Below, piece by piece: positions 1 to 16,206 of a stretch of 64,000 bases of DNA (position 1 is the stretch's first letter; every line of letters begins with the position of its first letter). A program made the position numbers and the translations under genes. The notes under the pieces are model-generated. The model had not been told where the DNA came from, did no database searches, and saw only the letters and a program-made list of their open reading frames with translations. The stretch is taken from NCBI GenBank assembly GCA_028719205.1, contig JAQUKH010000001.1, forward strand, positions 80,603 to 144,602, written 5' to 3'. The DNA comes from a bacterium (lineage in GTDB: Bacteria > JACRDZ01 > JAQUKH01).

Positions 1-729
1 CATTATAGTCTGCTATACCTGTGCTTAACGCCTCAAGAAAAGTTCCTGTAAACGCGGAATGGTTCTTATAACCGCCATCACTTACCGGCTCCTTGCCACC
101 GGCTGTCAGGGCCTGCCTTGCTTTGCGTTTGGTAATTTCCTGTAGGTAACGCGGATGGTCATCTTTCACCGCCGCCGCGCGCGTTGTAAAAAACATACCT
201 GAATAACAGGCATCCAGCACCATATAAATATGTTTAGCCTTTATGTCTTTTAAAATATCTTTAAGCTCCGTCATTGAGATCGCGGAGGATCTGTATTCTC
301 CCTGCCGGAAATCCACCGGTATGAGGTATCCATTGTCTAAACTGCTCTCCCCATGTCCGGCAAAATAAACCAGCAATCTATCCCTTTCGCCTATTTTATA
401 AGGCAATTCATCCCCAAGCATTTGTAAAATTCCGCTTTTTGTGGCTTTGTTATCATACAGAGTAAAAATATGGTCTTCCGCAAAGCCATATTTGTCCTGT
501 AACATTTGTTTTACCGCCTTAGCATCATTTACGGCATACTTAAGCTTCCCAACCTTCTGATAATCATCAATTCCCACCACGACAGCCCAGCTTTGTCCAA
601 ACGGTTCAAGCACTTCACCGTCTTTGGCAACAATTTTTATACTGCGCAAACCTTCAATTGCAAAATTTAAAGTAGTATTAAATAGAATTATAAGTATGGA
701 TAAAGCGATAATTTGTGTGCGTTTCATTA
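1..729 (-). CDS. peptidase C14 caspase-domain protein; N-terminal about 243 aa present, 3' end runs off the window. Fourth paralogue.
   Basis: Reverse translation from ATG at 729 gives MKRTQIIALSILIILFNTTLNFAIEGLRSIKIVAKDGEVLEPFGQSWAVVVGIDDYQ..., a signal peptide followed by a caspase domain. About 92% nt identity to 14610..16070 over nt 1-100. Confidence 0.7.
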
Positions 730-751
730 TTTATACCCCCCATTAATTCGG

Positions 752-937
752 CTAATCCGGATTCGCAATAGATACAAAACCACCCCAGTAAAAAGGATTG
801 GGATTTTTTTCTTTTATTTTAAGTTTTGCTTCTCTTAAGGCTTCAGCTTTACTTTTGCCATCTGCCATGCGTTTATAAAATTCTATCATCAGGTCTTTTG
901 TTTCCTCGTCAGGCACTTTCCACAGGCTCATTACCAA
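752..937 (-). pseudogene. 61-aa ORF resembling only the C-terminal end of a CHAT (caspase HetF-associated) domain; possible gene remnant
   Basis: ...DEETKDLMIEFYKRMADGKSKAEALREAKLKIKEKNPNPFYWGGFVSIANPD matches the typical CHAT C-terminus (D-x-T...FY...G-S-x-AEALR-AQ...P-YYW-A-F). No upstream CHAT body exists in the 108-nt spacer. Confidence 0.3.
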
Positions 938-1045
938 TGTTTTTGCTCCCGCGAGGATAAAGGGCCTTTAAGGCCGAACACTCCCTCTCCTTTTTTAACT
1001 TCTTATAATTATAATAAAAATATATAAACAAAAGGAAGGTTGCTA

Positions 1046-2500
1046 CTACTCAAATTTCCATACTTGATCCGGGTGTTTGACCGCTTGACAAATTCTACCA
1101 CCATCATCTTTATTGCCGTTATAAACATCCAGATATAGCCCACTGATTCTTGATTGGATATAATAATATCCCGGATATTTTTCAGATGGTTCTAATCGCC
1201 ATACTTGATCTGGGTGTTTGACGGCTTGACAAATTCTACCACCAACATCTTTATTGCCGTTATAAACATCCAGGTATAGCCCACTGATTCTTGATTGGAT
1301 ATAATAATATCCCGGATATTTTTCAGATGGTTCTAATCGCCATACTTGATCTGGGTGTTTGACGGCTTGACAAATTTTACCACCAACCTCTTTATTTGCC
1401 TGATATACATCCAGATACAAACCACTGTTTTGTGATTGGATGTAATAACCACGATTCCCGCTTTCATCATTCGCGTTTCCGTTAAATGGATAATAGGCTA
1501 CTAATGCACTGTTGATATTTTCCCCTTGCGTTTCTCCTTGTGTAGGTTTTATAATATCAATTATTTTGGGCGGGACATGAGGTTTAGCTTCTATAACATC
1601 AGGTTTATCCGCCCGGGGTTTGTTTCCCATAGCATAAACCGAAGGCTGCACAAATACAAACTCGCCTCCCTCGGATCCCGGCAAATTGCCGAATTCAGGG
1701 ATTTGATCTGCCAGTTCAGCTACCTTTGGCTGTATATAGGTGTTTATTTCCGAAGCTGTAATAATACCATCGCCGTTATAGTCAGCCATACCTGTGATTA
1801 ACGCATCCAGAAAAGTTCCGGTGAAAGCGGAATGATTTTTATAACCGCCATCGCTTACAGGCTCCTTGCCGCCGGCAGTCAGGGCTTGCCTTGCTTTGCG
1901 TTTGGTTATTTCCTGCAAATATCGCGGATGATCATCTTTAACCGCCGCCGCACGCGTTGTAAAAAACATACCTGAATAACAGGCGTCCAGCACCATATAG
2001 ATATGTTTAGCCTTAATATCCTTTAAAATATCTTTCAGCTCTGTCATTGAAATCGCTGAAGCTCTGTATTCTCCCTGACGATAGTCCACCGGTATGAGAT
2101 AACCATTATCTTTGCTGCTTTCTCCATGGCCCGCGAAATAAATTAACAATCTATCTCTATCTCCTATTTTATCAGGCAAATCATCTCCTATCTTCTTCAA
2201 AATATCATTTTTTGTAGCTTTATTATCATATAGGGTAAAAATGTGATCTTCCACAAATCCATATTTATCCTGAAGCATTTGTTTTACCGCCTCAGCATCG
2301 CTAACCGCGAATTTAAGCTTCCCAACATTTTGATAATTATCAATTCCTATCACAACAGCCCAACTTTGCCCAAACGGTTCAAGCACTTCTCCGTCTTTGG
2401 CGACAATTTTGATACTGCGTAAACCATCATTAGCAAAATCCATAGTTGTAGTCATTAGGAATGCCAGTATAACTAAAATGACGATCAGTTTGGTTCGCAT
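1046..2500 (-). CDS. secreted peptidase C14 (caspase/orthocaspase) with C-terminal ricin-B-type beta-trefoil lectin (three QxW repeats)
   Basis: Signal peptide; His/Cys dyad motifs YFAGHG and LDACYSG; C-terminal 3x47-aa repeats containing Q-V-W. Confidence 0.85.
   Translation of the reverse strand: MRTKLIVILVILAFLMTTTMDFANDGLRSIKIVAKDGEVLEPFGQSWAVVIGIDNYQNVGKLKFAVSDAEAVKQMLQDKYGFVEDHIFTLYDNKATKNDILKKIGDDLPDKIGDRDRLLIYFAGHGESSKDNGYLIPVDYRQGEYRASAISMTELKDILKDIKAKHIYMVLDACYSGMFFTTRAAAVKDDHPRYLQEITKRKARQALTAGGKEPVSDGGYKNHSAFTGTFLDALITGMADYNGDGIITASEINTYIQPKVAELADQIPEFGNLPGSEGGEFVFVQPSVYAMGNKPRADKPDVIEAKPHVPPKIIDIIKPTQGETQGENINSALVAYYPFNGNANDESGNRGYYIQSQNSGLYLDVYQANKEVGGKICQAVKHPDQVWRLEPSEKYPGYYYIQSRISGLYLDVYNGNKDVGGRICQAVKHPDQVWRLEPSEKYPGYYYIQSRISGLYLDVYNGNKDDGGRICQAVKHPDQVWKFE
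1058..1480. repeat. three tandem 141-nt repeats encoding the three beta-trefoil subdomains (1058-1198, 1199-1339, 1340-1480). Copies 1 and 2 are nearly identical; copy 3 is diverged.
   Basis: Direct comparison of the nucleotide blocks starting ccatacttgatc... Confidence 0.85.
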
Positions 2501-2606
2501 AATTTATATTTCTCCCCCATTTTTATCAATCCGAACTCCCCTAATCCCCTATTTAAAAAAAGAGGGGAAAATAACAGTAAAATTATATTTATCTTTTCCC
2601 TCTTAC

Positions 2607-2632
2607 TCCTCCTCTTTTTTTAAAGAGGAGGA
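2607..2632. other. perfect 11-bp inverted repeat tcctcctcttt-tttt-aaagaggagga (GA/CT-rich hairpin) in the intergenic spacer. A second hairpin tcccct-N12-agggga lies about 60 nt upstream.
   Basis: Seen directly; no flanking U-run, so not a canonical intrinsic terminator. Confidence 0.4.
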
Positions 2633-2660
2633 TGGGAGGAGTTCTCTTAATGTTATTCTT

Positions 2661-2709
2661 TCAGCTTTTGAATGAATTTAGCTGATAGCTGAGTGCTGAA
2701 TTCTGACAA
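2661..2709. repeat. family-1 TCAGC-heptad element, right-arm-only (half) copy
   Basis: tcagcttttgaatgaatttagctgatagctgagtgctgaattctgacaa matches the right arms at 7001-7031 and 8307-8337. Confidence 0.6.
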
Positions 2710-2710
2710 C

Positions 2711-4477
2711 TTATTTATTATCCTTTCTCTCTTCTTTTTTGTTACCCTTATCTCCCTTAGTTTCCGTGCTGTCCCACACCTCCTCCGTCCCCGCGGATGG
2801 AATTGGTTTTGACATCGATTGGCCCTCCTCTTCAGTCAGCCCCCTTGAGCCTGTAAATCTATTTATGTCTTTTCCATAGATCTTAAATTCATAAATTGTT
2901 TCTGACCATATAGTTTTATCTAATTTTTCCCGTACTACGCCGATATTTTTTATACCTCTTGTATTTATCTCGTAGAACGGTTTTTTAAAATCCATTCCGA
3001 ATATATTTTCAATTGGGTCAGGTTTTATTGAAGCAATCGCTTTTACCCTTTCTATTCCGGCAGGCCCTTCTATTTTCATCTTAAATCCGTAATTATCACC
3101 CGGGATTCTGTAAGTCTGGCCTGCCCTGATAAAATTGTCCTGTGAAAATTGATTAGGGAAAAGAACATATGTTTCACCGCTTGTCGCTATATCAACTAAA
3201 GTCAGATAACAGTCACGGCTTGCTTTAAAATAGAAGTTTACATATTCATCTATTTTGTAACTTTCTTTATCAGTAGCGATATTAATATCAAACTCTTTTT
3301 TCTCTTGTTTTATTCCAATTATATTTTCTATACCTTTATTCTCTAAAAATACAAAATATTGCGCTTTCTTTACAACTTTCTCATCACTTAGCAACCCAAA
3401 TTCAACAGGGAAACTGCCTTCTTTATCAACAGGAATCCCCTGGCCGTCAAATTTTACTTTACCTGACATGTCAGTAAACTCATCTCTAACCCTTTTATCT
3501 AAATTGGGAAGAAACATAAAAACAGGCGAGTTTTTTATTGGAATATTTTTATCACCGGCCATATAACTAAATTCAATTTCAAACGGCTCCTTAATTTTTC
3601 CCCCGACTAAGATCTTCTGGTTATCGCCGGAAATTTTTTTCATTATGATCCCATTAAGTATTTTATCTTTTAAATGTTCAATGTCCTGCATCGATGGAAG
3701 ATTATTAGAATTATTATTTCCGGAAATTTGGGCTGATAAATATACTTTGTCAAATACGGTTTTCCTTTCTTCCGATAAATCCCAAAGTATTTTTAATGCT
3801 AAAACAACCTCCCCGTTTTTTTCATGCTCCAATGCTGTATTATAACCTTTTGTAATGCCTTCGATTTTTTCCTGCAGCAATTTGATCTCCATCTGTTCTT
3901 TTTTATTTTCTTCTTTTTCTTTATTTTCTGCGGCTTTATCTCTTCTTTTTTCCGCATATTCTCTTATACTTCTAATTTCTTCCTGAGGCACCGAAATTAA
4001 AAGCGCGGACACCCAATAAATTTTAGAGTTTTTATTTTCATAATATTTATATTTGCAATCATACCATTCTGATGGTTTTGTCCCGCGAATGAACGCTTCA
4101 GCAGCAGCACTGCTCGCATTTTTTCCAATTGACGCTATAGTTTCTTCATTATCTTTTCTGACTACTTTATTAATATATTCTTCTATAACTTCTATATTGA
4201 CTCCGCAATACTTAATAAATTCAATATCCGCGCCCCGCTTTGCTTCATCACGGGCAAATTTTCGCTCTTCTTTTTTTGATGACATACTGACAAAATACGC
4301 GTATTTTTCATCATGTTCAGGAGGTTTTATAAACCAGGCGGGCTGGATCGGGGAGGAAGATTCAAGTAATACCTCATTAACTTCCACAGTCTTTTGAGAT
4401 TCATCTCTAACTTGCATTCCTGTGCAGCTGCAAAACATAGAAATTACAATTATAATTATAAAATATTTTTTACCCAC
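2711..4477 (-). CDS. lipoprotein with N-terminal LPP20/FlgP-like domain and C-terminal DUF4384-like domain; K/E-rich tail
   Basis: Lipobox-like FCSC; PAWFIKPP...YAYFVS pattern of the LPP20 family; the C-terminal block YVNFYFKASRDCYLTLVDIATSGETYVLFPNQ...YRIPGDNYGFKMKIEGPAGIERVKAIAS resembles the caspase-associated DUF4384. Confidence 0.55.
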   Translation of the reverse strand: MGKKYFIIIIVISMFCSCTGMQVRDESQKTVEVNEVLLESSSPIQPAWFIKPPEHDEKYAYFVSMSSKKEERKFARDEAKRGADIEFIKYCGVNIEVIEEYINKVVRKDNEETIASIGKNASSAAAEAFIRGTKPSEWYDCKYKYYENKNSKIYWVSALLISVPQEEIRSIREYAEKRRDKAAENKEKEENKKEQMEIKLLQEKIEGITKGYNTALEHEKNGEVVLALKILWDLSEERKTVFDKVYLSAQISGNNNSNNLPSMQDIEHLKDKILNGIIMKKISGDNQKILVGGKIKEPFEIEFSYMAGDKNIPIKNSPVFMFLPNLDKRVRDEFTDMSGKVKFDGQGIPVDKEGSFPVEFGLLSDEKVVKKAQYFVFLENKGIENIIGIKQEKKEFDINIATDKESYKIDEYVNFYFKASRDCYLTLVDIATSGETYVLFPNQFSQDNFIRAGQTYRIPGDNYGFKMKIEGPAGIERVKAIASIKPDPIENIFGMDFKKPFYEINTRGIKNIGVVREKLDKTIWSETIYEFKIYGKDINRFTGSRGLTEEEGQSMSKPIPSAGTEEVWDSTETKGDKGNKKEERKDNK

Positions 4478-4497
4478 TATCCCCCCTATTTAAAAAA

Positions 4498-4921
4498 TAG
4501 CATTCAGCAATCAGCTGTCAGCATTCAGCTTTTTAATGAAAGACGTAATCATGCGCTTAATTTCTATTACCTTTTCAGTAAGACACTGGAAATCAGAATG
4601 GCTCAGCAACTCAAGATCATGAGTAAGCAGAAGATGATATTCTAACTCACATGCAGAACCCATCGCAATCTGAAAGAAACGCGATAACTCAGCTTCTCCC
4701 TTTCTTCCGCAGCCTTCTGCAATGTTAGCTGGAATAGAAGCACACGAACGCCGAATTTGGCTTGTCAGACCAAACAACTCATTTTTTGGAAAACTTGAAG
4801 TAGCTTTGTATACAGCCAAAGTTAATTCATGAGACTTCTCCCAAACTTTCAGTTCTCTAAAATTCTTCAATTGTATCGCTCCTTATTTTGCTGACAGCTG
4901 ATCGCTGAGTGCTGACAGCTC
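4498..4921. mobile_element. family-1 palindromic element carrying a gene. Left arm 4498-4529 and right arm 4890-4920 bracket the four-helix-bundle protein gene.
   Basis: The arms gcattcagcaatcagctgtcagcattcagc and gctgacagctgatcgctgagtgctgacagct are inverted TCAGC-heptad arrays as in the empty copies. The gene's last 7 codons lie inside the left arm. Confidence 0.4.
4511..4870 (-). CDS. four-helix-bundle protein (23S rRNA intervening-sequence protein family, PF05635/TIGR02436)
   Basis: ...LAVYKATSSFPKNELFGLTSQIRRSCASIPANIAEGCGRKGEAELSRFFQIAMGSACELEYHLLL... TTG start preceded by AAGGAG. Confidence 0.85.
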   Translation of the reverse strand: MKNFRELKVWEKSHELTLAVYKATSSFPKNELFGLTSQIRRSCASIPANIAEGCGRKGEAELSRFFQIAMGSACELEYHLLLTHDLELLSHSDFQCLTEKVIEIKRMITSFIKKLNADS

Positions 4922-6127
4922 TTATATGGCTTTATACGCTTCCTTCCTCTTCAGTATCCTTTGTAAATAATCTATTGTTTCCTGTTTTGGTAATTTTTTT
5001 ATTAACGTTTCATAGACAACTTTTGAAGTCATACTATTTATAATGGCATCTGCTTTTTTGATATCTTTCACGCCTGCAAATGTTTGCGCGAGATTTCCTA
5101 TCCCCGTATTATAAGCGGCAATAACGCAGTAAAGCCTGCTTTCTACATCTTTTATATTTTTGCAGTAACCATAAAATAATAATCCAAGATAAGCAGTTCC
5201 AATATTTATGTTGTTTTCATCATTATATAAATAAGAAGGGCTCAATAAATATGACTTCCCATATAAAATTTTCGTAACATCTTTACCGGCTGTTCCAGGG
5301 ACCACCTGCATAAGCCCATAGGCGGGAATCGGAGACTTTGCCATCGGATTAAAAGCGCTTTCTGTATGTATTACTGCCAATGCCAGAGACAGATCTAATT
5401 TATTTTTATCCGTGTATTTGCTGACTGACGCTTTATATTGTTTTGCTCTTTTAAGTAAACTATCAGATGGCAGGTCTATTTTTATGCTAATTACAATCGT
5501 TTTCTCAACTTTTGACGGCGCTTCCTGAATTTTAGCTTTTGCTACTATCTTTTTTACTTCTTTAGAAACTTCTTCTTTTTTAGGCGTGGGAGTATTAAAA
5601 AATACAGGCGCCAGGATCGGATCGCTTTTCACCTCATCTTTTTTTATATTCTTTACTTCTTTAATTACCTTTTTTTCTATGTTCTGTGAAAGCTTATCTT
5701 TTTCAAAGGCCGTTTTTTTGTCTTCAACCATTAAATCTTCCAGTGCCTTTTTAATTTTATTCTCTTTTTCCTCTTTTTTTTCATTCTGGCCTACGATTAT
5801 ATCTATTTTTATATTATTATTCTCAAAATCCACAATTTTTTTTGTTTGATAATCAGGAGAGTACTCAACCCATTTTTTATTATCAGAAATTTCAGGTTTA
5901 TCCCAGTTTGCTAATATCTCTTTTTTGTAATTCTCATATTCTTCTTCTACTATATTTTTATATTGTTCAAATTCTTTTTCTATTTCCGCTTGATATTCCT
6001 CAAATTCCTGCTGTTCCTGAGCAACTCCATTTTCCTGCTGTTTAACAAAGTCTTCAAAAGATTCAGCGGATACAAATGAAAAGTTAAAAAATATCATTAC
6101 ACCGGCCAAAACAATTACTTTTTTCAT
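4922..6127 (-). CDS. MltC-like membrane-bound lytic murein transglycosylase (SLT domain) with E/K-rich coiled N-terminal region
   Basis: HTESAFNPMAKSPIPAYGLMQVVPGTAG catalytic motif. Start chosen at ATG 6127 (MKKVIVLAGVMIFFNFSFVSA signal peptide, GGAAGGAA RBS). The longer ORF to 6160 would start with TTG inside the repeat. Confidence 0.75.
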   Translation of the reverse strand: MKKVIVLAGVMIFFNFSFVSAESFEDFVKQQENGVAQEQQEFEEYQAEIEKEFEQYKNIVEEEYENYKKEILANWDKPEISDNKKWVEYSPDYQTKKIVDFENNNIKIDIIVGQNEKKEEKENKIKKALEDLMVEDKKTAFEKDKLSQNIEKKVIKEVKNIKKDEVKSDPILAPVFFNTPTPKKEEVSKEVKKIVAKAKIQEAPSKVEKTIVISIKIDLPSDSLLKRAKQYKASVSKYTDKNKLDLSLALAVIHTESAFNPMAKSPIPAYGLMQVVPGTAGKDVTKILYGKSYLLSPSYLYNDENNINIGTAYLGLLFYGYCKNIKDVESRLYCVIAAYNTGIGNLAQTFAGVKDIKKADAIINSMTSKVVYETLIKKLPKQETIDYLQRILKRKEAYKAI

Positions 6128-6148
6128 TTTTTGTTTTTCCTTCCAATT

Positions 6149-6227
6149 AGCTATCAGCAATCAGCGCTCAGATATCAGCTAATTCAAATAAAAGCTGAAT
6201 GCTGACAGCTGATAGCTGAACGCTTAG
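6149..6227. repeat. family-1 TCAGC-heptad palindromic element (complete, empty)
   Basis: agctatcagcaatcagcgctcagatatcagct - aattcaaataaa - agctgaatgctgacagctgatagctgaacgct. Confidence 0.7.
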
Positions 6228-6898
6228 TATTTCTTAAACTTCTTGATAATCCAAATAACAACATATATTGCCACACAAAACCCTACAAAAAACGCAAGTA
6301 TAAGTTCATTGGTTCCTAAACTAAAACCGCTTTTTTCAGATATGGAAGATTCCGATAACGGTTCCACTTTTGCTTCAGATTTAGCTTCTTCCTTGACTTC
6401 TTCTTTTACCGCTTCTTTCACTTCTTCTTTTTGTATTTCTTTTGGTTTTTCTACTGCTATTTTTTCAACCTGTTTAATTTCAACTGTTTCAGCTTTTATA
6501 TCCGCTAAAATCAAATTTTCTTTTTTATTTTCAACCGCAGCCCCTTTACGAAGCTCTTCTAATTTATCTATTTCCTTATCTAGCTCATCCTGCCCATTTT
6601 TTGCTTTATTCTCCTGCCATAATGCTTCTTCGTTTATTTTTTTTTCTTTTTCGGGAGCAGCTTTTCCTTCGGTTTTAGCCTCATTTGAAATACTAATTGA
6701 TTTTTTGTCTTCTGAAATTTCTTTTTTAAACTTATTAAAATCCTCTAAATTTTCTTTCTTGTGCTCCTGAAAATCCTCTTTCATCTTTTGACTGGTTTCT
6801 CCCTCAAGCTCATTTTCAACGTCATCATATGTTTCAGCAAATAAAAACGTACTATTTAATAACATTATTATTCCGATAAAAATAAGTAATTTTTTCAT
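6224..6898 (-). CDS. secreted E/K-rich low-complexity protein with C-terminal transmembrane anchor
   Basis: Signal peptide MKKLLIFIGIIMLLNSTFLFA (ATG 6898, AAGGAG RBS); C-terminal LILAFFVGFCVAIYVVIWII; contains the ALWQENKAKNGQDELDKE motif shared with 7562..8164. Confidence 0.5.
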   Translation of the reverse strand: MKKLLIFIGIIMLLNSTFLFAETYDDVENELEGETSQKMKEDFQEHKKENLEDFNKFKKEISEDKKSISISNEAKTEGKAAPEKEKKINEEALWQENKAKNGQDELDKEIDKLEELRKGAAVENKKENLILADIKAETVEIKQVEKIAVEKPKEIQKEEVKEAVKEEVKEEAKSEAKVEPLSESSISEKSGFSLGTNELILAFFVGFCVAIYVVIWIIKKFKKY

Positions 6899-6924
6899 TC
6901 TATTATTTCTCCTTTGAAGTTTAA

Positions 6925-7031
6925 GCATTCAGCTCTCAGCTATCAGCACTCAGCTTTTTAATAGCATTCATCCATCTGCATTCAGTTTTTGAATGGATTT
7001 AGCTGATAGCTAGTAGCTGACCGCTGAACGC
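6925..7031. repeat. family-1 TCAGC-heptad palindromic element (complete, empty)
   Basis: gcattcagctctcagctatcagcactcagc ... agctgatagctagtagctgaccgctgaacgc. Confidence 0.7.
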
Positions 7032-7037
7032 TTCTTT

Positions 7038-7496
7038 TCATTGCAACACCATCCATACATGAATTTCCCCTGATTTTTCATCTTTCCAGATCTCTTCAAT
7101 ATTCGCTTTTACACTTTTACTATCAGACGTCTGAACGCTATAAGTACCCATATATGTCTTTGCGTCATTCTGTGTACCGGTTGTCGCGGTTACAAGATAA
7201 CTATTAACCTTTACCCCTAACTGCCTTGCTATATCATCCAAGGCCCTTTCTATAGCCAATTTTCTCTGTTCATTTTCACTTTTTATATGTATTCCGGATG
7301 TCCCAACACCGCCAATATTGCCTTTCATTCCCGGATTCCAATACCATTCCGGTTTACCATTTACTATTTTTGTCCCTTTTGATGTAACGTTCGTAATTAT
7401 TGATCCGCTATTATCCGCTTTTTTTACGCAGGATGACGCGGTAAACGCCAATATAACTACAGGTATTAGTAATAACCGGCTAAAAATATTTTTCAA
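7038..7496 (-). CDS. LPP20/FlgP-like lipoprotein
   Basis: Lipobox TASSC; PEWYWNP...GGVG...A..A..LA pattern. TTG start. Confidence 0.55.
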   Translation of the reverse strand: MKNIFSRLLLIPVVILAFTASSCVKKADNSGSIITNVTSKGTKIVNGKPEWYWNPGMKGNIGGVGTSGIHIKSENEQRKLAIERALDDIARQLGVKVNSYLVTATTGTQNDAKTYMGTYSVQTSDSKSVKANIEEIWKDEKSGEIHVWMVLQ

Positions 7497-7561
7497 ATTA
7501 ATACCCCCATTTTATTGGAGGAAAAGCATAAGATCTGCTTTCCCTCCAACTCTAATATTTA

Positions 7562-8164
7562 CTATTTTTTAGATTCAACTAATTTATTTACTTCTTTGTC
7601 CAGTTCATCCTGCCCATTTTTCGCTTTAAACTCCTGCCATAAAGCCTGTTCGTTCTTAAAACTGGTTTCAACCTGGTCTTTTATGGATTTCTTAGCTAAT
7701 TCATTATCAATAACAATCAAAACATATAAATTATCTTTTGGGGATGCCCAACTATCCCTAAGTGTTGTACCATTTAAAGTTTGGCTTGCAACTTGTTTTG
7801 ATACATCCGCTGATACCCTGTCAACCATTTCGCCATTACCAACCCCTGTAACATTCATAAAAGATTTAACCATATTTTTTACTTTTAACTCCATCATTCT
7901 GGCAAGTTCATTTCTTCCGTTGGCCAAAGCCTCTGTTCTTGCAAAGGACATACCGGCTTTACCTACTTTAGCAATACCAACTGCCGCGATCCCGCCTTCT
8001 ACCTGAGAGGTGGTTACCCATTTTGGAGCATCTTTAAATTCACTTTGTACAGTTGTATCCTGTTGAGTGTCTGTTTGCTTTGTTACGGCCTTAGTTGTTC
8101 CACAACCGGCAGAAAACACCACTGCAATAGCCAAAATACTTAACGAAATCATTTTCTTTTTCAT
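7562..8164 (-). CDS. LPP20/FlgP-like lipoprotein
   Basis: Lipobox FSAGC; APKWV...GGIAAVGIAKVG...ARTEALANGRNELA; strong AAGGAGGAT RBS. Confidence 0.65.
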   Translation of the reverse strand: MKKKMISLSILAIAVVFSAGCGTTKAVTKQTDTQQDTTVQSEFKDAPKWVTTSQVEGGIAAVGIAKVGKAGMSFARTEALANGRNELARMMELKVKNMVKSFMNVTGVGNGEMVDRVSADVSKQVASQTLNGTTLRDSWASPKDNLYVLIVIDNELAKKSIKDQVETSFKNEQALWQEFKAKNGQDELDKEVNKLVESKK

Positions 8165-8230
8165 TGTGTATCCTCCTTTTTATTTACATTGTGAATTTTT
8201 TTTTATTTAACTACAATGCTAGCTTATTAA

Positions 8231-8337
8231 GCAATCAGCAGTCAGCTTTCAGCTTTTTAATAGCTTTCTGCGTTCAGTTATCATTAGTCAGCTTTTGAAT
8301 AAAATTAGCTGATAGCTGAATGCTGAAATCTGATTGC
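8231..8337. repeat. family-1 TCAGC-heptad palindromic element (complete, empty), located in the 5' leader of 7562..8164
   Basis: gcaatcagcagtcagctttcagc ... agctgatagctgaatgctgaaatctgattgc. Confidence 0.7.
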
Positions 8338-8414
8338 TAAAGATTTAATCACCTCCCTGGCTTTAAGATGCTATTTTTTAGTAATAAACTTTTTTATATC
8401 TAACTCTAATATAA

Positions 8415-8431
8415 TGCAAGAACCATGCCAA
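8415..8431 (-). promoter_or_regulatory. sigma-54 (-24/-12) promoter. Minus-strand sense TTGGCATGGTTCTTGCA.
   Basis: TGGCAT-N5-TTGCA with correct spacing; 16/18 identical to the promoter at 16190-16206. Confidence 0.6.
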
Positions 8432-8576
8432 AAGTCGTTAAACAGTAAAAATAAATTCATTTTTATTAAAAAAACCCGATTTTTTCAGTCTTTTCCCCGT
8501 TTTTTTTAATCCAAATCCAAAATTACTAATATTAGCATATCAAAAACAGCCTGTTCCTATATCAAATAACGTATGG

Positions 8577-8591
8577 ATGCATGGAATTCCA
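8577..8591. promoter_or_regulatory. putative EBP enhancer (UAS) palindrome ATGCATGGAATTCCA, about 155 bp upstream of the sigma-54 promoter
   Basis: Same 15-mer as in the 16342-16359 palindrome, with the same spacing to the promoter. Confidence 0.45.
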
Positions 8592-8626
8592 CACAAGATA
8601 TGTTAAATGTTTTAGAATCTATCACC

Positions 8627-8670
8627 GTCAGCATTCAACTTTTGCATAAAATTAGCTGATAGCTGAAAGC
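8627..8670. repeat. family-1 element, half copy
   Basis: gtcagcattcaacttttgcataaaattagctgatagctgaaagc. Confidence 0.55.
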
Positions 8671-8673
8671 TCC

Positions 8674-10176
8674 TTATACAATATGCCCCCCTTTGTCAGG
8701 TTTATTAATATACTTTCGTCCTTTTGCCGTAATTTTGTACTTTTGGAGACGGCTGTTGGGCTTTTCCAGAATGGTTCTTTCAATAAGCCCTTCTGACAAA
8801 AGATCTTGAACCAACCGTTTAAGTGCCCCTGTAACTTGCTTCCTTCCAACTTGCACAGATATCTCAGACATAGAAAGCGGTTTATCCTTTAATGCTATTA
8901 TAACTGACTCGGCCCCTGACTCGGCCCCTGACTCGGCCCCTACAACCGGTTTTAATTTCACTAAAATTTTACGCCATACTGTTAAAATAAAGAACCCATT
9001 TTCTAAATGGAATTCCGGTGGTTTCATGCCTGCTTTTCGGCAATTATCAAACATATCAACAGTTCCGGTTCCAGCCTTTTCGATATATTTTGTCAGAAAA
9101 AGCGGTTCGGCAATCAGCGGATTTCCAGGGTGAGACGAATGAGGCATCGATAAACTCTCAATTGTCAGTGACGGCGGCAAAGTTCCAGGATTCCATACCT
9201 CAAGGCGATCTGCAAAAAGCATAATTTCAACGCTGGCATTGCTTATATAATCACGATGAGCTACTGCATTTACAATTCCCTCCGCGACCACTTCTTGCGG
9301 AATATCATATTCAACAGGAGCTTGCGGCCCTTGCGCCCGTGTTCCAACAAAACGGTTAAGTTTTGACATCACGAAATCAACCGACTGATCGACCATATCA
9401 AAAACCGTTCCCTTGTAAATTTGATATGATGGAATCGGCTTGAGTTTCTGTGTACCGTGAAAATGCATACATTTCACTTCGGAAGTAATCAGAAACCGCT
9501 GTGGTTTGACTCCAAATAATAAAATTGCCGCATGATTCGGTTTCCCTTTATCAAGCAGATCCAGATGGGTCAAAACATCAACAACAGGTGTTGTTTCTGC
9601 TAAAGCGTAATCACGGGCGTTGTGCGCGCGTGAAAGAAACCAGCGAATCTTATCGTCCGAAATATCGGCGACCTCCGCATTAAGACACATCGTCGCGTCA
9701 AATGGCCCGGTGTGGATCCGCCCGGAACCAAGAAGATAATGTACCAGGCTTGCGTAGACAGCTGAATGCAATTCTGGCAATGTATTAAAACGCCGTCGAA
9801 TCAACTGTGCTCCTGCTAAATTGATCAAAGAAATCATCTTTGGATGCCGGGATGCATCGCTATCGCCTTTGACAAAGATATAGCGAGGTTTACTACCCTG
9901 CGATGCCAAAAGAAATTCTTTATGCGTCGCGGACATTCCGTCGGAATCTTCAATGCCATACTTATTACCAAACAGGCCAATATAAATATCGCTCCGTTTA
10001 ACTTCTTCCAAGTACACCTCATCAGCACGGCGATCAGTAGCAGGAATATCCTCAAACAGAAACACATTAAAAAACCTGTTTAATAACGCGTCTCCCTGTA
10101 TATAATCTTTCAGAGCACGGCGTTCTTCGCTAAATTCTTTTTGAACACTGCTGATAAATATTTTATATTTTGTCAT
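8674..10176 (-). CDS. DUF4062-like N-terminal domain + AlbA_2 (Schlafen-like) + HATPase_c_4 + C-terminal winged HTH (RecG-like transcriptional regulator architecture, COG2865)
   Basis: KIFISSVQKEFSEERRALKDYI...SDIYIGLFGNKYG (DUF4062 pattern); ...NAVAHRDY...GTGTVDM... (HATPase_c_4); C-terminal wHTH. Confidence 0.55.
   Translation of the reverse strand: MTKYKIFISSVQKEFSEERRALKDYIQGDALLNRFFNVFLFEDIPATDRRADEVYLEEVKRSDIYIGLFGNKYGIEDSDGMSATHKEFLLASQGSKPRYIFVKGDSDASRHPKMISLINLAGAQLIRRRFNTLPELHSAVYASLVHYLLGSGRIHTGPFDATMCLNAEVADISDDKIRWFLSRAHNARDYALAETTPVVDVLTHLDLLDKGKPNHAAILLFGVKPQRFLITSEVKCMHFHGTQKLKPIPSYQIYKGTVFDMVDQSVDFVMSKLNRFVGTRAQGPQAPVEYDIPQEVVAEGIVNAVAHRDYISNASVEIMLFADRLEVWNPGTLPPSLTIESLSMPHSSHPGNPLIAEPLFLTKYIEKAGTGTVDMFDNCRKAGMKPPEFHLENGFFILTVWRKILVKLKPVVGAESGAESGAESVIIALKDKPLSMSEISVQVGRKQVTGALKRLVQDLLSEGLIERTILEKPNSRLQKYKITAKGRKYINKPDKGGHIV
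8906..8941. repeat. 3x12-nt perfect tandem repeat (gactcggcccct) encoding an (AESG)3 linker
   Basis: Seen directly. Confidence 0.9.
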
Positions 10177-10195
10177 TTTGTTTTGCTAATTTCTT

Positions 10196-12466
10196 TTATT
10201 TATATTCACTGCCACGAACAGGCCAAACAGAATAAAAATAGTTATCATTAAACAAACGAAGCTCTTGACCGTTAGAAAAATCAACAATTCGGCCATCAAT
10301 ATTTATCCAATAGCCCTGACTTTCAGGCACTAAATTAACAAAAGGATGTTGCTCTTGTTTATTATAAACAGTTTTCATTCTTATCAACTCTTTATATGTT
10401 GGCAATCTCCATCCAAAATATTTTTCATAATTTAAATTATTACATGCTAATTCAGCATTTTCCCAAATCACTTTGTTTTTTAAATAATTTGCGTCCTTTA
10501 ACCACAATAGTTTTGTAACATTATCATAAATAACACCATTCCCTAAATCTATGAATTTTGAAGGAAATAAAGCATATTTATTAATTAGTTTGGACCCAGT
10601 TAAATCCATAAATCTTGAAGAAAATTCATATTTTTTATTTAACGCATCATCAATAACATATGCTTCATTAATACTAAAATCTTTTGTCGTTGGAAAATTC
10701 ACTTTGATTTCAGCCCTTAGCAAATTATTTTCAAAATGCTGTTTCAACACTTTTGCCTCTTCTCTTGGAATTAGTATATTTTGTTTACATGTTACTTGAA
10801 TTCCTTTGATTGGTTGTTTTATTCTTATGGTAACGGGGTAAAAATTAAACTCGGAATTGTACTGTCGAAGTTCTAATATTAAATCATTGTATGTTAAAAC
10901 AAATTCATTTTCCGAAAGCTGTTTTAGCCTTTCAATAAATGGCGTGATTTGTTTATAATATTCAGATTCAATTTTACTCGATAATGCCTCAAATTCAGGC
11001 GTTTGCTCTTTATCTAAATTTTCTTTTTCCTTTAATATTTCAATTGACAATCTGTTCTTAAATTCAATTTCTGACTCAAACTCATCTTTATTAGAGTTTA
11101 ATATTTTCCCAAATTTCTCATTAATTCTTATACATATCTGGTTTATTCCATTAGTCAATTCTTTTCTATAATTTTTCTGAATGTCTTTTAATTGTGCGTC
11201 TATTTCCTCCATCTCGTTTATTGTAGCTTCAGGAGAAATTGATCTTAATGTTGCACCTTCCAGCGATTTCCTTTTACCTTCAACTTCCTGTTTAAGCATT
11301 GCTAATCTGGTTTCTTCTTCCTTCTTTTTTTGGATCAATTCATTTTCTTTTTTTAATCGTTCCTTTTCTTCGTCTTCCCTTTTTTTACGGTTTTCTTCCA
11401 ATGCATCTTGTTTTAATTGTTCCGCCCTTAATTTTGCTTCAATTTTTATTTTTTCGATCTCTGCCTGATATTTTGCACTTTCATCATTTGCCTTTAAAGC
11501 AGATTCTTCCAATAATTTTAACCGATCAAGTTCTTTTTGCAGGTTTACAACTTCCGCTTGATTATCTTCCAGTTTGCGTTCAATTGAAGGGATAAAAACA
11601 TAATCTCCTAATCCATATAACTCTCCATATTTTGGTGTTTGTATATGGTTTCTCGCGTTTGCGTCTGAGAATACTTTTTCTTTAAGCGCAGTGCTTATTT
11701 CAGTGGCTGTTATAAAATCATCTGTATTTTCCAGAAGTTCAATAAACCTGCCGGTAAAAACCGAATGGCCTTTAGGCCCGCCGTCTAATACCTGCTGGTC
11801 TTTATCCCCCGCGGTTAACACTTGTCTGACCCGCTCTTTAGAAATTTCTTTCAAATAGTTAAAATCCCTTGCTGTTTCTCTATTTGCCCCTCTTTTTGTT
11901 ACAAGAATTCCGCCATAGCACGCATCAACAATATAGAAAATATGTTTTGCCGGTATTCGTTTTGAAATATCATCTCTAATCATTGTCATAGAAAAATTTT
12001 TATATAATTCTTCTTTTTTGAATGTTCCGTCAAATGGTATAAGATAACCCAAATCCCCTTCCGCTGTTTTTTCCGTATATCCATGCCCTGCCCAGAAAAC
12101 AAAAATCGCGTCTTCTTCTGTAACCTGGCTAAGATTACCTAAAAGAATTTTAGTAATATTTTCTTTTGTAGCATCTTTATTGTATAAGGTAATGATCTTA
12201 TCAAATTTAAAATTCTTCCTGATAGCGTCTTCAACCCCTTTAGCGTCCTTTACCGCATAAGCCAATTGCATGTCATATGGCAAATTTTCATATTGGTCAA
12301 TTCCAATAATAACCGCGTAAGATTTGTTATATAACTTAAGTTCTTTTTTCTCTCCCGATGTTTTATCAACGGCAATGATTTTTATACCGCGGGTATCATT
12401 AATTGCGTATATTCCGCTTGATATAAAACAAGCAATAATTATTAAAAATAATAATTTTAATTTCAT
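10196..12466 (-). CDS. secreted peptidase C14 caspase-domain protein + long coiled coil + C-terminal DUF1566 (Lcl C-terminal-like) domain
   Basis: Signal peptide; FWAGHGY and VDACYGG dyad motifs; E/K/R-rich coiled coil; C-terminal WRLPTYKEL...WPVRG, characteristic of DUF1566. Confidence 0.8.
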   Translation of the reverse strand: MKLKLLFLIIIACFISSGIYAINDTRGIKIIAVDKTSGEKKELKLYNKSYAVIIGIDQYENLPYDMQLAYAVKDAKGVEDAIRKNFKFDKIITLYNKDATKENITKILLGNLSQVTEEDAIFVFWAGHGYTEKTAEGDLGYLIPFDGTFKKEELYKNFSMTMIRDDISKRIPAKHIFYIVDACYGGILVTKRGANRETARDFNYLKEISKERVRQVLTAGDKDQQVLDGGPKGHSVFTGRFIELLENTDDFITATEISTALKEKVFSDANARNHIQTPKYGELYGLGDYVFIPSIERKLEDNQAEVVNLQKELDRLKLLEESALKANDESAKYQAEIEKIKIEAKLRAEQLKQDALEENRKKREDEEKERLKKENELIQKKKEEETRLAMLKQEVEGKRKSLEGATLRSISPEATINEMEEIDAQLKDIQKNYRKELTNGINQICIRINEKFGKILNSNKDEFESEIEFKNRLSIEILKEKENLDKEQTPEFEALSSKIESEYYKQITPFIERLKQLSENEFVLTYNDLILELRQYNSEFNFYPVTIRIKQPIKGIQVTCKQNILIPREEAKVLKQHFENNLLRAEIKVNFPTTKDFSINEAYVIDDALNKKYEFSSRFMDLTGSKLINKYALFPSKFIDLGNGVIYDNVTKLLWLKDANYLKNKVIWENAELACNNLNYEKYFGWRLPTYKELIRMKTVYNKQEQHPFVNLVPESQGYWINIDGRIVDFSNGQELRLFNDNYFYSVWPVRGSEYK

Positions 12467-12470
12467 AATA

Positions 12471-13544
12471 CTATCTTTGACCTACATTATGTCTTTTGAC
12501 ATCATAAAAAGCCACACTTGATGCTTTTATATTATCTTTATTTTTATCTTTAATGTTTGAATCAATATAATATGGCAATGAGAATGAAAAATAATTACCA
12601 ATATCTTCTATTTTAATATTATTATCTTCGGGATTAAAACTGAGAGTAATATCAATGCCGCTTTTTACATTTAGCTTAAGAGCACCACTTAACACGTCAT
12701 CCCATTTTAAAAAATTTAAATTATTAGTATTAAAATTACTATATTGACTAGATTTGACAAATCCACTAACATATTTAAAAATATTCCCTTTTTCATCAGA
12801 TAAAGTTGGGTTAATTTCATAAACTCCTATTATTAAAATCTCTTTATCCAATTGATTAACAACATTTAATAACACTTCAGCTCTTCCCTTTGATAAAACT
12901 TTTACTTGTTTTACAGTAAAAAGTAAATCTCCAACTTTCTTTGAGTTTGAATTTCCGACTGAAGGGACATAGGAAGGAGTATTTTCAGAACTTTGCTGTT
13001 CAAAGGGCTGATTTGATTCAACTATTCCTCTCTCCAGAAGTTCATTTATCGCCTGGGTCTTTGCGATATTTCCTGAAGAAGCGCCAATCACCTTGGCGGT
13101 ACTTATATCTATAATTTTAACTGAAAGCCTTACATTGTCGCCAAACGGGGTAATACTTCCTGTGATAATTGCTTCTACTCCGGCTATCTGCCCCAGCTTT
13201 TTGGCTGATTCAGGGTTTACTAAATCAGATAGTGAAAGTTTATGTTCCCGTAAAAGAGCTTTAAGGTGAATTCTATCCACCACTTCAAATCCTTTCCCTG
13301 CAGAGGTAAGAGTTACTGAAAACTCCTCTGCTAAAAATCTCCCTAATTCGGTTACATTACCCTGAAGGTCTGTGAAATCAACCACAGCTATTGACTTCTT
13401 CCCCGCTTGTGATATATTTTCTGCCATTGTGGCAGACAGGGCGCTTATTTCTTTTTCATAAGCCTTCGATAAATTTGAACCAGACAGTAAAAATACTGTT
13501 GATAAAAGGCAAACAAGAAAAAACTTCTTAATGATACTTTCCAT
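12471..13544 (-). CDS. FlgO/CsgG/LpoB-like fold periplasmic protein (paralogue B)
   Basis: Signal peptide; IAVVDFTDLQGNVTELGRFLAEEF...VVDR..L..LL.E..L pattern. The N-terminal 190 aa are near-identical to 13601..14590. Confidence 0.5.
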   Translation of the reverse strand: MESIIKKFFLVCLLSTVFLLSGSNLSKAYEKEISALSATMAENISQAGKKSIAVVDFTDLQGNVTELGRFLAEEFSVTLTSAGKGFEVVDRIHLKALLREHKLSLSDLVNPESAKKLGQIAGVEAIITGSITPFGDNVRLSVKIIDISTAKVIGASSGNIAKTQAINELLERGIVESNQPFEQQSSENTPSYVPSVGNSNSKKVGDLLFTVKQVKVLSKGRAEVLLNVVNQLDKEILIIGVYEINPTLSDEKGNIFKYVSGFVKSSQYSNFNTNNLNFLKWDDVLSGALKLNVKSGIDITLSFNPEDNNIKIEDIGNYFSFSLPYYIDSNIKDKNKDNIKASSVAFYDVKRHNVGQR

Positions 13545-13600
13545 TATATTAATCCTCCCTTTTTGTAAAAATCTTTATTTCTTATTTCTATCGTTTATCA

Positions 13601-14590
13601 TCATTTTGTTATTGGAATATTGCGAAGCTGGGCAATAATCCATTTGTTGTCTCTATAGCATGGGATTTCTAGCAACGATAGTTTGCTAACATTTTTTGAA
13701 ACTGTTTCAATTTTAAATGTTAATCTCGTTGGCACATCAGAAACAAGCAAATTTCTAGCACATCTGTCCTTATGATTTCCAAGCTCAATACCTTCCGGAC
13801 AATATTCATTCCCAAAATCATCAAAAATTCTTGATGATTTTGTCCAATCAGTACTACCAGTACAACCACAAATCATTATTTCCCTATCGTTTTTATCTTT
13901 ATTAGTAATTATTAAATTACAGGTTATTGTCGTATTAGAAATTTTACACTCTTTTACCTCAAAAAGAAAATCATCCACTTCCACACTTTGCTGTGCTTTT
14001 GTTGGTTTCTGTGATGATATTGTTTGTATTGGTTTACTTACATCTTGTGCTTGAACTTCTGCTTCTATCCCCCTCGCCAAAAGTTCATTAATAGCTTGTG
14101 TTTTAGGAATATTTCCAGCAGTGGCGCCAATAACCTTGGCAGTACTTACATCTAATATTTTAATGGTAAGCCTTACACTTTCACCAAAAGGGGTAAGGCT
14201 TCCTGTAATAATCGCTTCTACTCCGGCTATCTGCCCCAGCTTTTTGGCTGATTCAGGGTTCACTAAATCGGAAAAGGCAAGTTTATGTTCCTTTAAAAGG
14301 GCTTTAAGATGGGTTCTATCTATTACTTCAAATCCTTTTCCAGCCCCGGCAAGAGCAACCGAAAACTCCTCTGCTAAAAATCTTCCAAGCTCGGTTACAT
14401 TACCCTGAAGGTCTGTAAAATCAACTACGGCTATTGTCTTCCTGCCAGCCTGTGTAATATTTTCTGCCATCGTAGCAGACAAAGCGCTTATTTCTTTTTC
14501 ATAAGCCATAGAGAAACCAGAGCCTGACAGCGAAAATATTATTGATAAAAAACAAATAAAATAAAACTTCTTCCATGCATCTTTTTTCAT
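13601..14590 (-). CDS. FlgO/CsgG/LpoB-like fold periplasmic protein (paralogue A) with Cys-rich C-terminal domain
   Basis: Same N-terminal domain. Start at ATG 14590 with AGGAGG RBS; the longer ORF to 14620 would overlap the upstream stop. The C-terminal 120 aa contain 8 Cys. Confidence 0.5.
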   Translation of the reverse strand: MKKDAWKKFYFICFLSIIFSLSGSGFSMAYEKEISALSATMAENITQAGRKTIAVVDFTDLQGNVTELGRFLAEEFSVALAGAGKGFEVIDRTHLKALLKEHKLAFSDLVNPESAKKLGQIAGVEAIITGSLTPFGESVRLTIKILDVSTAKVIGATAGNIPKTQAINELLARGIEAEVQAQDVSKPIQTISSQKPTKAQQSVEVDDFLFEVKECKISNTTITCNLIITNKDKNDREIMICGCTGSTDWTKSSRIFDDFGNEYCPEGIELGNHKDRCARNLLVSDVPTRLTFKIETVSKNVSKLSLLEIPCYRDNKWIIAQLRNIPITK

Positions 14591-14609
14591 TAAATCATTC
14601 CTCCTGTAT

Positions 14610-16070
14610 TTATTTCCCAAATATTAAAGTTAATTTGTTAATAAATTCATCAATTAACGGTTCAGCTAATTTTTTAGTAAACTGATCATCTCTTTTTCCA
14701 TTAATCGCCTGTTTCTGATCCAATCCGAATATCTTTTCTGTTCTATTAATTGAAACAACTTTTTCTTTATTAGAAACTTTGTTTAGGGTTAGAATAGCCT
14801 TAGCTATATAAGATTTTAAACCCATGTTATCCTGAGAAAATTCAATCGAGGTTTCTATAGCTAAATTTAAATCGGGAGTAACATCCTCTAATTTTTCTGT
14901 TTTTTTCTTGTAATCATCTGCTTCTTCATTATTACCTCTATTACGGGCAACTTTTTCTTTAGCAGTAAAAATGTTTTTTTGGCCTGTGATTTCATCCAAT
15001 TTTTGTGAATTATAAATATGCCAACCAGCTTCTGTAAGTTTTTGATCCAATAATGTCTCTAAAATATCACTACCTTCTCCTTTTATTTCCATAATTACAT
15101 TTTTAGGAACAAGTTTTATCTGTTTTTCTTTTGATTCTACAACAGGAGCTGATACTTCCTCTTTTTGAGTTACAGGTTGTGGAGCAGTAACCTGTTTCGG
15201 TGAAGAATCAGACGGCACAATAAATACAAACTCGCCTCCCTCAGATCCCGGCAAATTGCCAAATTCCGGTGTCTGTTCTGCAAGCTCCGCTACTTTTGGC
15301 TGAATATAAGAGTTTATTTCTGAGGCAGTGATAATACCATCGCCATTATAGTCGGCCATACCTGTACTTAACGCCTCTAGGAAAGTTCCTGTAAAGGCGG
15401 AATGGTTCTTATAACCGCCATCACTTACCGGCTCCTTGCCTCCGGCGGTTAGGGCCTGCCGGGCTTTCCGTTTTGTGATTTCCTGTAAGTATCGCGGATG
15501 TTCCTTATCCACCGCCGCTGCGCGCGTGGTAAAGAACATACCTGAATAACAGGCATCAAGCACCATATAGATTTGTTTAGCCTTGATATCTTTTAAAATA
15601 TCTTTTAGCTCGGTCATGGAAATCGCGGTGACTCTGTATTCCCCCTGCCGAAAATCAACCGGTATGAGGTAACCATTATCTAAACTACTTTCCCCATGCC
15701 CGGCAAAATAGACTAATAATCTATCTCTATCACCTATTTTATAGGGCAATTCGTCCCCAAGTATTTGCAAAATTCCGCTTTTTGTGGCTTTATTATCATA
15801 CAGGGTAAAAATATGATCCTCCGCGAATCCATATTTATCCTGAAGCATTTGTTTTACCGCCTTAGCATCATTTACAGCATACTTGAGCTTTCCAACCTTT
15901 TGATAATCATCAATTCCTACCACCACCGCCCAGCTTTGTCCAAAGGGCTCCAGAACTTCCCCGTCTTTAGCGACAATCTTAATACTACGTAATCCCTCTG
16001 CGGCATAACCCAAAGTTGTATTAAATATAACCGATATTATGAATAAAACTATAATACGTCTGATATGCAT
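14610..16070 (-). CDS. secreted peptidase C14 caspase-domain protein with uncharacterised C-terminal domain
   Basis: About 85% aa identity to 1046..2500 over the caspase domain (YFAGHG, LDACYSG); the C-terminal 200 aa have no recognisable motif. Confidence 0.85.
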   Translation of the reverse strand: MHIRRIIVLFIISVIFNTTLGYAAEGLRSIKIVAKDGEVLEPFGQSWAVVVGIDDYQKVGKLKYAVNDAKAVKQMLQDKYGFAEDHIFTLYDNKATKSGILQILGDELPYKIGDRDRLLVYFAGHGESSLDNGYLIPVDFRQGEYRVTAISMTELKDILKDIKAKQIYMVLDACYSGMFFTTRAAAVDKEHPRYLQEITKRKARQALTAGGKEPVSDGGYKNHSAFTGTFLEALSTGMADYNGDGIITASEINSYIQPKVAELAEQTPEFGNLPGSEGGEFVFIVPSDSSPKQVTAPQPVTQKEEVSAPVVESKEKQIKLVPKNVIMEIKGEGSDILETLLDQKLTEAGWHIYNSQKLDEITGQKNIFTAKEKVARNRGNNEEADDYKKKTEKLEDVTPDLNLAIETSIEFSQDNMGLKSYIAKAILTLNKVSNKEKVVSINRTEKIFGLDQKQAINGKRDDQFTKKLAEPLIDEFINKLTLIFGK

Positions 16071-16189: not shown

Positions 16190-16206
16190 TGCAATTACCG
16201 TGCCAA
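16190..16206 (-). promoter_or_regulatory. sigma-54 (-24/-12) promoter. Minus-strand sense TTGGCACGGTAATTGCA; about 120 nt upstream of the caspase start at 16070.
   Basis: Consensus TGGCAC-N5-TTGCA. Confidence 0.65.

Follow-up and report, generated by a model that had tools for sequence, protein, structure and literature searches.

Caspase-like paralogues with a conserved catalytic cassette and unrelated C-terminal tails in a bacterial envelope gene cluster

Caspase-like genes of the locus

A 64,000-nucleotide (nt) stretch of contig JAQUKH010000001.1 (assembly GCA_028719205.1, positions 80,603 to 144,602 of the forward strand), hereafter the window, carries four caspase-like genes, designated A, B, I and L. 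All four are located on the minus strand, which bears every gene from position 1 to position 19146 (Table 1), and they are Peptidase_C14 genes lying where an earlier note, made from the sequence alone, had recognized caspase paralogues. Other genes of the window encode BamA, MsbA, KdtA, PyrG, ClpB/ClpC-type and McsB-type proteins, and their presence indicates the ordinary chromosome of a diderm bacterium, with a GC content of ~34%. Exact protein-database matches were found for L (P0001), B (P0004) and full-length A (P0003, 794 amino acids (aa)), all on one 197,039-bp contig of a metagenome-assembled genome at NCBI.

The catalytic domain was recognized by the Pfam model Peptidase_C14 (PF00656) in B, L, I and P0003 at 57.8–65.2 bits against a cut-off of 21.4, with E-values from 1.7e-15 to 9e-18 for the caspase genes (1e-16 for P0003); weak matches to the solved metacaspases 6w8s and 4f6o were also obtained. 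The catalytic His-Cys dyad is intact in every copy, within YFAGHG and DACYSG in A, B and L and within WAGHG and DACYGG in I, and an alignment of 11 family members shows no variation at H125 or C174. A Sec-type signal peptide, read from the sequences, opens each of the four genes. No fifth copy was detected by phmmer within the 64-kb window. The four paralogues are therefore predicted, from sequence, to encode Sec-exported caspase-like cysteine peptidases of the orthocaspase/metacaspase type (MEROPS C14), and we infer that they possess protease activity.

A conserved cassette with a sharp 3' boundary

Nucleotide identities were taken in register from the start codon, without gaps. Over the signal peptide and catalytic domain, A, B and L are 82–87% identical at the nucleotide level and 89–95% identical at the amino acid level. 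The ~92% identity between A and L claimed earlier for the first 100 nt was reproduced there (93.0% over window positions 1–100), but it represents a local maximum, as the value is 84.9% over positions 1–727 and 87.2% over the mature catalytic part. The corresponding identities between A and B are 86.0%, 82.3% and 84.6%, and B and L share 82.6% over the mature catalytic part, which agrees with the 80–85% previously estimated for B. Copy I, with 36–40% amino acid identity to the others, is indeed the more distant paralogue. The signal-peptide codons (nt 1–72) show just 60–64% nucleotide identity, and homology between the copies ends ~14 nt 5' of the start codons.

At the 3' side, a maximum chi-square scan placed the boundary between B and L at coding sequence (CDS) nt 865 (chi2 445), with 82.5% identity to its left and 25.9% to its right, so that B carries a different C-terminal tail. 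Comparison of L with its homologue on L003, a Logan contig from another metagenome, placed the boundary at CDS nt 872. In window coordinates, the breakpoint lies at ~1636 in B and ~15199–15206 in L. Identity drops to the random level (about 26%) within a few codons past PGSEGGEFVF, near codon 289–291, and in the alignment of the 11 family members, whose tails are of at least six types, invariance ends at F283. Identity thus does not decay uniformly along the genes, and the breakpoint separates the catalytic part from the tail.

Non-homologous tails and footprints of their replacement

Beyond this boundary, each copy continues into a different module. The tail of A, known from P0003, consists of a coiled-coil linker followed by two Laminin_G_3 (LamG_3) modules (E 2e-49), and that of I comprises a long coiled coil and Lcl_C (DUF1566). 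In B, a linker of its own leads to a ricin-B beta-trefoil, in which repeat 2 matches repeat 3 at 95% over 141 nt and repeat 1 shares 73–77% with both; the duplication of repeats 2 and 3 is the sole truly recent duplication of the region, and the trefoil is accordingly nearly symmetric. The tail of L belongs to the FlgT-middle/CsgG/TolB-N-type class. An exhaustive HMMER search identified six distant homologues of this tail, and an AlphaFold model built from a 6-sequence alignment reached a predicted local distance difference test (pLDDT) score of 80. Its helical insertion contains a 51%-identical patch shared with the coiled coil of P0121, a CsgG/GNA1162-like lipoprotein from another metagenome. 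Among relatives with 54–75% amino-acid-identical catalytic domains, the tails are FGE-sulfatase, CarboxypepD_reg, PEGA or a coiled coil alone, and those of remoter relatives include tetratricopeptide repeats (TPR), polysaccharide deacetylase, Big_7 and WD40, among others.

Two footprints of tail replacement were recognized. The 20-residue segment NSALVAYYPFNGNANDESGN of B matches, at 90–100% amino acid identity, the leader that opens every LamG module of P0003 and of the related protein O (P0002), and 45 nt of this region are 91% identical to L003. In B, the leader abruptly gives way to ricin repeat 1, substituting that repeat's first ~7 residues. B therefore appears once to have carried a LamG-type module. 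The second footprint concerns module order: the linkers of P0003 and P0002 are 92% identical, yet their LamG modules are ordered differently (a,b versus c,a'). The first module of A and the second of O are 84% identical, and every other LamG pair shares 33–41%. The LamG modules are in every case bounded by one and the same leader motif, and the different order fits module gain or loss between repeated leader motifs. No orphan tail cassettes or extra LamG-leader motifs were found in the window by tblastn and motif scan. The neighbouring pair J and K mirrors the caspase pattern, with N-terminal regions of ~170 aa that are ~85% identical (78–88% at the nucleotide level) and diverged C-terminal halves. 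Tail exchange is further indicated by this J/K pattern, by the patch that the L insertion shares with P0121 and by the varied tails of the relatives. The sharp boundary at the domain end, the non-homologous tails, the LamG-leader relic and the rearranged LamG modules together bear out the view that a conserved catalytic cassette has been combined with exchangeable tails.

Age of the copies and tests for gene conversion

The earlier note had regarded the duplications as recent and had suggested gene conversion between the copies; neither proposal was supported. Synonymous (dS) and nonsynonymous (dN) divergence was estimated by the Nei-Gojobori method over codons 25–242. Among the window copies, dS is 0.84 for A/L, 0.95 for A/B and 1.21 for B/L, near saturation, and the copies have no conserved flanking DNA. 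Any two copies differ at about half of their synonymous sites (proportion of differing sites, pS, 0.50–0.60), although the proteins are 89–95% identical, and dN/dS is 0.03–0.06. The DNA identity of ~85%, which is tempting to read as recent duplication or conversion, is thus attributable to strong purifying selection acting on old copies. The L003 gene, which belongs to a different organism and has an A-type tail and different neighbours, served as the single outgroup for DNA comparisons. Its dS values are 0.79 to A, 0.83 to L and 1.07 to B. As this gene is as close to A and L as A and L are to each other, the paralogues have not been homogenised within the genome.

Recombination was assessed with home-made implementations of 3SEQ-like, GENECONV-like and maximum chi-square tests. 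The 3SEQ-like excursion test gave p > 0.06 in 12 of 12 parent/child triplets, and for the three window pairs the GENECONV-like test, based on the longest fragment, returned p-values of 0.24, 0.39 and 0.07. No second breakpoint was detected within the catalytic part by maximum chi-square (p = 0.18–0.31). The longest identical tracts between copies span 32–44 nt, and quartet-informative sites are split near-evenly (14/13/12). The duplications of A, B and L accordingly appear to be old and under strong constraint, with no detectable recent duplication or conversion.

Gene cluster and predicted sigma-54 elements

The caspase genes are interspersed with genes for predominantly envelope-type proteins (Table 1). 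Directly upstream of L lies M, whose product combines a CHASE2 sensor with a sigma-54 activator. The element TGGCACGGTAATTGC, upstream of L, is the sole perfect match to the sigma-54 -24/-12 pattern TGGCAC-N5-TTGC in 64 kb; a second element, TGGCATGGTTCTTGC, lies upstream of G. The 15-mer TGGAATTCCATGCAT occurs twice in 64 kb, each time 140–150 nt upstream of a sigma-54 element, against a chance expectation of 0.24 with 2 mismatches allowed; near the L promoter, it forms part of the palindrome ATGCATGGAATTCCATGCAT. Because both elements are preceded by this common 15-mer, the four caspase genes appear to reside in two co-regulated sigma-54 operons, with L-K-J-I-H and G-F-E-D-C-B-A as the apparent transcription units. 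The two elements and their 15-mers beside M look like a two-operon regulon with predicted enhancer sites, and both operons are probably switched on together by the adjacent activator M.

Table 1 Features of the caspase gene cluster (positions are those of the window)
Feature	Position	Strand	Description
Copy A	1..727	-	Signal peptide and most of the caspase domain (first 242 codons); truncated by the window edge
Copy B, whole gene	1046-2500	-	
Copy B, ricin-B beta-trefoil	1049..1472	-	Three 141-nt tandem repeats (47 aa each); RicinB_lectin_2 E 2e-24
Copy B, LamG-leader relic NSALVAYYPFNGNANDESGN	1454..1513	-	20 aa; joined in frame to ricin repeat 1
Copy B, linker	1514..1635	-	Unique, Pro/Lys-rich; no similarity to the A or L linkers
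Copy B, conserved cassette	1636..2500	-	Signal peptide and Peptidase_C14; YFAGHG (His), DACYSG (Cys); terminates in PGSEGGEFVF
C	2711-4477	-	DUF4384 lipoprotein
D	4922-6160	-	SLT lytic transglycosylase
E	6224-6928	-	Coiled coil with C-terminal hydrophobic anchor
F	7038-7496	-	LPP20/FlgP-family lipoprotein
G	7562-8164	-	LPP20/FlgP-family lipoprotein
Sigma-54 -24/-12 element TGGCATGGTTCTTGC	8416..8430	-	One mismatch, GG/GC retained; H-G intergenic, upstream of G
15-mer TGGAATTCCATGCAT, second copy	8577..8591	-	~150 nt upstream of the G promoter
H	8674-10176	-	DUF4062, HATPase_c_4 and Fic-like_C; cytoplasmic-looking; GC 0.43, above neighbours
Copy I	10196..12466	-	Signal peptide, caspase domain with His/Cys, long coiled coil, Lcl_C (DUF1566)
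J	12471..13544	-	Exported CsgG/FlgO-like protein
K	13601..14620	-	CsgG/FlgO-like protein, paralogue of J; overlaps the L stop by 11 nt
Copy L, whole gene	14610-16070	-	
Copy L, tail	14610..15198	-	Alpha/beta module homologous to FlgT-like middle domain, with helical-hairpin insertion
Copy L, conserved cassette	15199..16070	-	Signal peptide and Peptidase_C14 domain
Sigma-54 -24/-12 element TGGCACGGTAATTGC	16191..16205	-	Exact; ends 121 nt upstream of the L start codon; intergenic
Palindrome ATGCATGGAATTCCATGCAT, full 20 nt	16341..16360	.	~140 nt upstream of the L promoter; candidate activator-binding site
M	16360..19146	-	CHASE2 sensor (E 5e-30) and sigma-54 AAA+ activator (Sigma54_activat E 2e-63); directly upstream of L

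Three further features of the window were recorded. H, which is flanked by I and the second sigma-54 promoter, probably represents an insertion unrelated to its surroundings, and it contains a perfect 12-nt tandem repeat (x3.2) at 8904-8941 that encodes GAES repeats. E and G, otherwise different genes, have a common patch of 76 nt that is 84% identical (6559-6634 versus 7579-7654, the latter at the 3' end of G), and both versions encode ALWQExKAKNGQDELDKE. Outside the cluster, the open reading frame (ORF) at 42033-43538 gave a sub-threshold match to the phospholipase-D (PLD)-like DISARM protein DrmC (E 5e-19, 68.7 bits against a cut-off of 133) and may encode a PLD-family nuclease.

Recurrence of the gene neighbourhood

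Parts of this gene set recur on other contigs. Contig L086 (1-10146) encodes FlgT-like, kinase and GNA1162-like proteins, a FlgO/CsgG-DUF4384 fusion and a caspase, and contigs L091-L093 (L091 1-17320) encode an S8-kinase protein, GNA1162-like and FlgT-like proteins, an SLT protein and two CsgG-like proteins. The SLT protein of L091-L093 shows full-length similarity to D, and phmmer linked L086 and L091-L093 directly to J/K, C, D, the L tail and the caspase domain. L086 and L091 are unrelated metagenome contigs, and in both the gene set lies beside a Ser/Thr kinase and a protease, either a caspase or an S8-kinase protein. This recurrence suggests an uncharacterised conserved envelope neighbourhood, and L resembles the protease fused to one of the partners found there.

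At locus L003, the gene upstream of the A-type caspase is not a B homologue, so the gene order differs from that of the window, and downstream (3005-4360) lies a gene for a signal-peptide-bearing HEAT/PBS-lyase-like repeat protein.

Proposed explanation and alternatives

Taken together, the data favor old duplications of a constrained cassette that acquired different tails and came to lie in two sigma-54 units, an explanation to which we assign a probability of roughly 0.72. The setting would be an envelope gene cluster on the chromosome of an unclassified diderm bacterium with low GC. A, B and L would derive from old duplications of one unit, beginning at the ribosome-binding site and closing with the final beta-strand of the catalytic domain (PGSEGGEFVF), a unit that strong purifying selection then kept near-constant in protein while synonymous sites became nearly saturated. 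Past the boundary, in-frame recombination, either non-homologous or guided by micro-homology, may have given each copy its own extracytoplasmic module for binding or docking. A would thereby have acquired two LamG lectin-type modules, and I a coiled coil with Lcl_C; in B, a ricin-B trefoil would have taken the place of a LamG module and left its 20-aa leader behind; and L would have acquired a module of FlgT-middle/CsgG type, the fold class to which the adjacent J and K belong. One protease chemistry could in this way be sent to different envelope or extracellular sites, namely glycans for the ricin, LamG and Lcl_C tails and a lipoprotein scaffold for the L tail, conceivably under a common envelope signal.

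Several observations weigh against this explanation. The breakpoint and tail of A are known at the protein level alone, through P0003, because the DNA of A ends at codon 242. A dS near 1 is imprecise, which makes the relative ages of the duplications rough, and a single in-register outgroup (L003) leaves room for short or old conversion tracts. An A/B patch at CDS nt ~450–570 reaches 90–93% identity, which is suggestive and not significant. GC content at third codon positions (GC3) is 0.37–0.40 in the cassettes, compared with 0.18–0.29 in the tails and a median of 0.30 across the window (standard deviation (SD) 0.045). This difference, real but mild at ~1.5–2 SD, could point to biased gene conversion or to a foreign source. 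Finally, homologues of J/K, LPP20, DUF4384, SLT and M were found in none of 80 metagenome loci of remoter caspase relatives (41–50% identity), nearly all of which carry a single caspase ORF; the association with envelope genes is therefore lineage-restricted.

The sharp boundary could also have been produced by concerted evolution, in which ongoing gene conversion keeps the catalytic halves alike through tracts that stop at the domain boundary. Local identity peaks (93–97% for A/L in some 60–100-nt windows; 93% for A/B at CDS nt 481–540), the patch VKDD common to A and B where L and O have VDKE/VEKE, and the raised cassette GC3, as expected from GC-biased conversion, would agree with such a process. 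It is nonetheless very improbable given the pS between any two copies, the shortness of the identical tracts, the non-significant outcome of all three recombination tests for the window pairs, the evenly split quartet sites, and an A/L dS of 0.84 beside 0.79 for A and the gene of another organism. Separate horizontal transfers of ready-made caspase-tail fusions from related donors, without any duplication in this genome, constitute a second alternative, which we consider improbable. A, L and the L003 gene are related in a star-like manner, the copies lack flanking homology, the family is widespread with many tail types, and cassette GC3 exceeds the local background while relatives occur in higher-GC genomes (GC3 0.66 for the L004 gene), all of which would fit such transfers. 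They would not readily explain why all copies lie in one co-oriented, apparently co-regulated cluster, why tail GC3 is typical of or lower than the local level, or why B retains a LamG-leader relic of the kind found in its neighbour A. In addition, the L tail shares the fold class of J and K, and its homologues elsewhere are separate genes of similar neighbourhoods, which suggests local recruitment.

The earlier note had further likened the pattern to polymorphic-toxin or adhesin diversification, which in the context of inter-bacterial conflict would make the tails swappable targeting cassettes. The products are predicted to be exported, the ricin-B, LamG and Lcl_C tails are of lectin type, and a modular junction motif is present. 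This likeness breaks down on the nature of the parts, for the enzyme is the conserved portion and the variable portion is not a toxin and would serve binding or docking. No copy is followed by an immunity-like small gene, the downstream genes being K (CsgG/FlgO-like), H (DUF4062/HATPase_c_4) and A; tail cassettes that are silent or orphaned are absent from the window; the genes alongside encode envelope lipoproteins of housekeeping type and a lytic transglycosylase; and no secretion-system, Rhs, PT-domain or diversity-generating retroelement (DGR) components were seen. A repeat search of the 64-kb window found no DGR-type template/variable repeat (TR/VR)-like pair, and none involving the 3' end of any caspase gene, and no reverse transcriptase was noticed among its annotated ORFs. 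Diversification of this sort is accordingly hardly credible here.

Within the preferred explanation of old duplications and acquired tails, a more speculative extension may be formulated, which we regard as rather unlikely as a whole. The caspases might represent the protease arm of an uncharacterised sigma-54/CHASE2-switched envelope system comprising FlgO/CsgG-like, LPP20/FlgP-like, FlgT-like, DUF4384 and SLT proteins, a set that is met again beside a caspase or subtilisin on unrelated metagenome contigs. In such a system, a ring or scaffold of lipoproteins would be the docking site of L, the lectin-tailed copies would act on glycan-bearing targets, and tail swaps would recombine at the conserved LamG-leader motif. 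For the little-understood functions of exported bacterial caspase homologues, the FlgT/CsgG-type fusion, the recurring envelope neighbourhood and the common sigma-54 elements provide testable leads.

Comparison with known systems

Polymorphic toxin systems combine a conserved N-terminal trafficking region with a variable C-terminal toxin and an immunity gene. As in these systems, the paralogues described here share one part, differ abruptly at the C-terminus and have products that appear to be exported. The polarity, however, is reversed, with a conserved enzyme and a variable binding module, and immunity genes, orphan cassettes and a dedicated secretion apparatus are lacking in the window. 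Modular extracellular enzymes, such as glycoside hydrolases with CBM13/ricin or LamG-type modules, shuffle their carbohydrate-binding modules (CBMs). The window genes resemble them in linking a catalytic domain to lectin-type modules (ricin-B, LamG) that vary between paralogues, and they differ from modular glycoside hydrolases in that the enzyme is a caspase-fold peptidase and one tail is of lipoprotein-scaffold rather than lectin type.

Similarity to the flagellar outer-ring proteins FlgO, FlgP (LPP20 family) and FlgT of Vibrio and Campylobacter exists at the family and fold level only. L is without FlgT_N, unlike FlgT, and no flagellar genes were noticed among the annotated ORFs of the window. 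Other metagenome loci likewise pair this gene set with kinases, proteases and SLT proteins, and not with flagellar genes.

The closest parallel is provided by prokaryotic caspase homologues. According to one survey, they display 112 architectures, among whose extra domains are FGE-sulfatase, polysaccharide deacetylase and peptidoglycan-binding ones, have N-terminal helices that are probably signal peptides, and are present as many paralogues per genome, with up to three copies per operon and in cell-surface operon contexts (PMC3501461); variable C-terminal domains are described for orthocaspases in general (PMC6426788). The window genes conform to this description in their p20-type catalytic domain with a His-Cys dyad followed by diverse extra domains, and their relatives carry FGE-sulfatase and polysaccharide deacetylase tails. 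As variable tails and multi-copy operons are already documented, the pattern belongs to a known kind, and current views are not overturned: the domain shuffling is real but old and already familiar. The term 'ricin' is absent from PMC3501461. Compared with the homologues in the consulted passages of both sources, the locus is set apart by a ricin-B tail with a LamG-leader relic, a double LamG tail and a FlgT-middle/CsgG-type tail, by a nucleotide-level footprint of tail replacement, and by the location of all copies in an envelope cluster probably controlled by a sigma-54/CHASE2 activator. The region thereby offers a clean nucleotide-level example of C-terminal module gain by bacterial caspase homologues.

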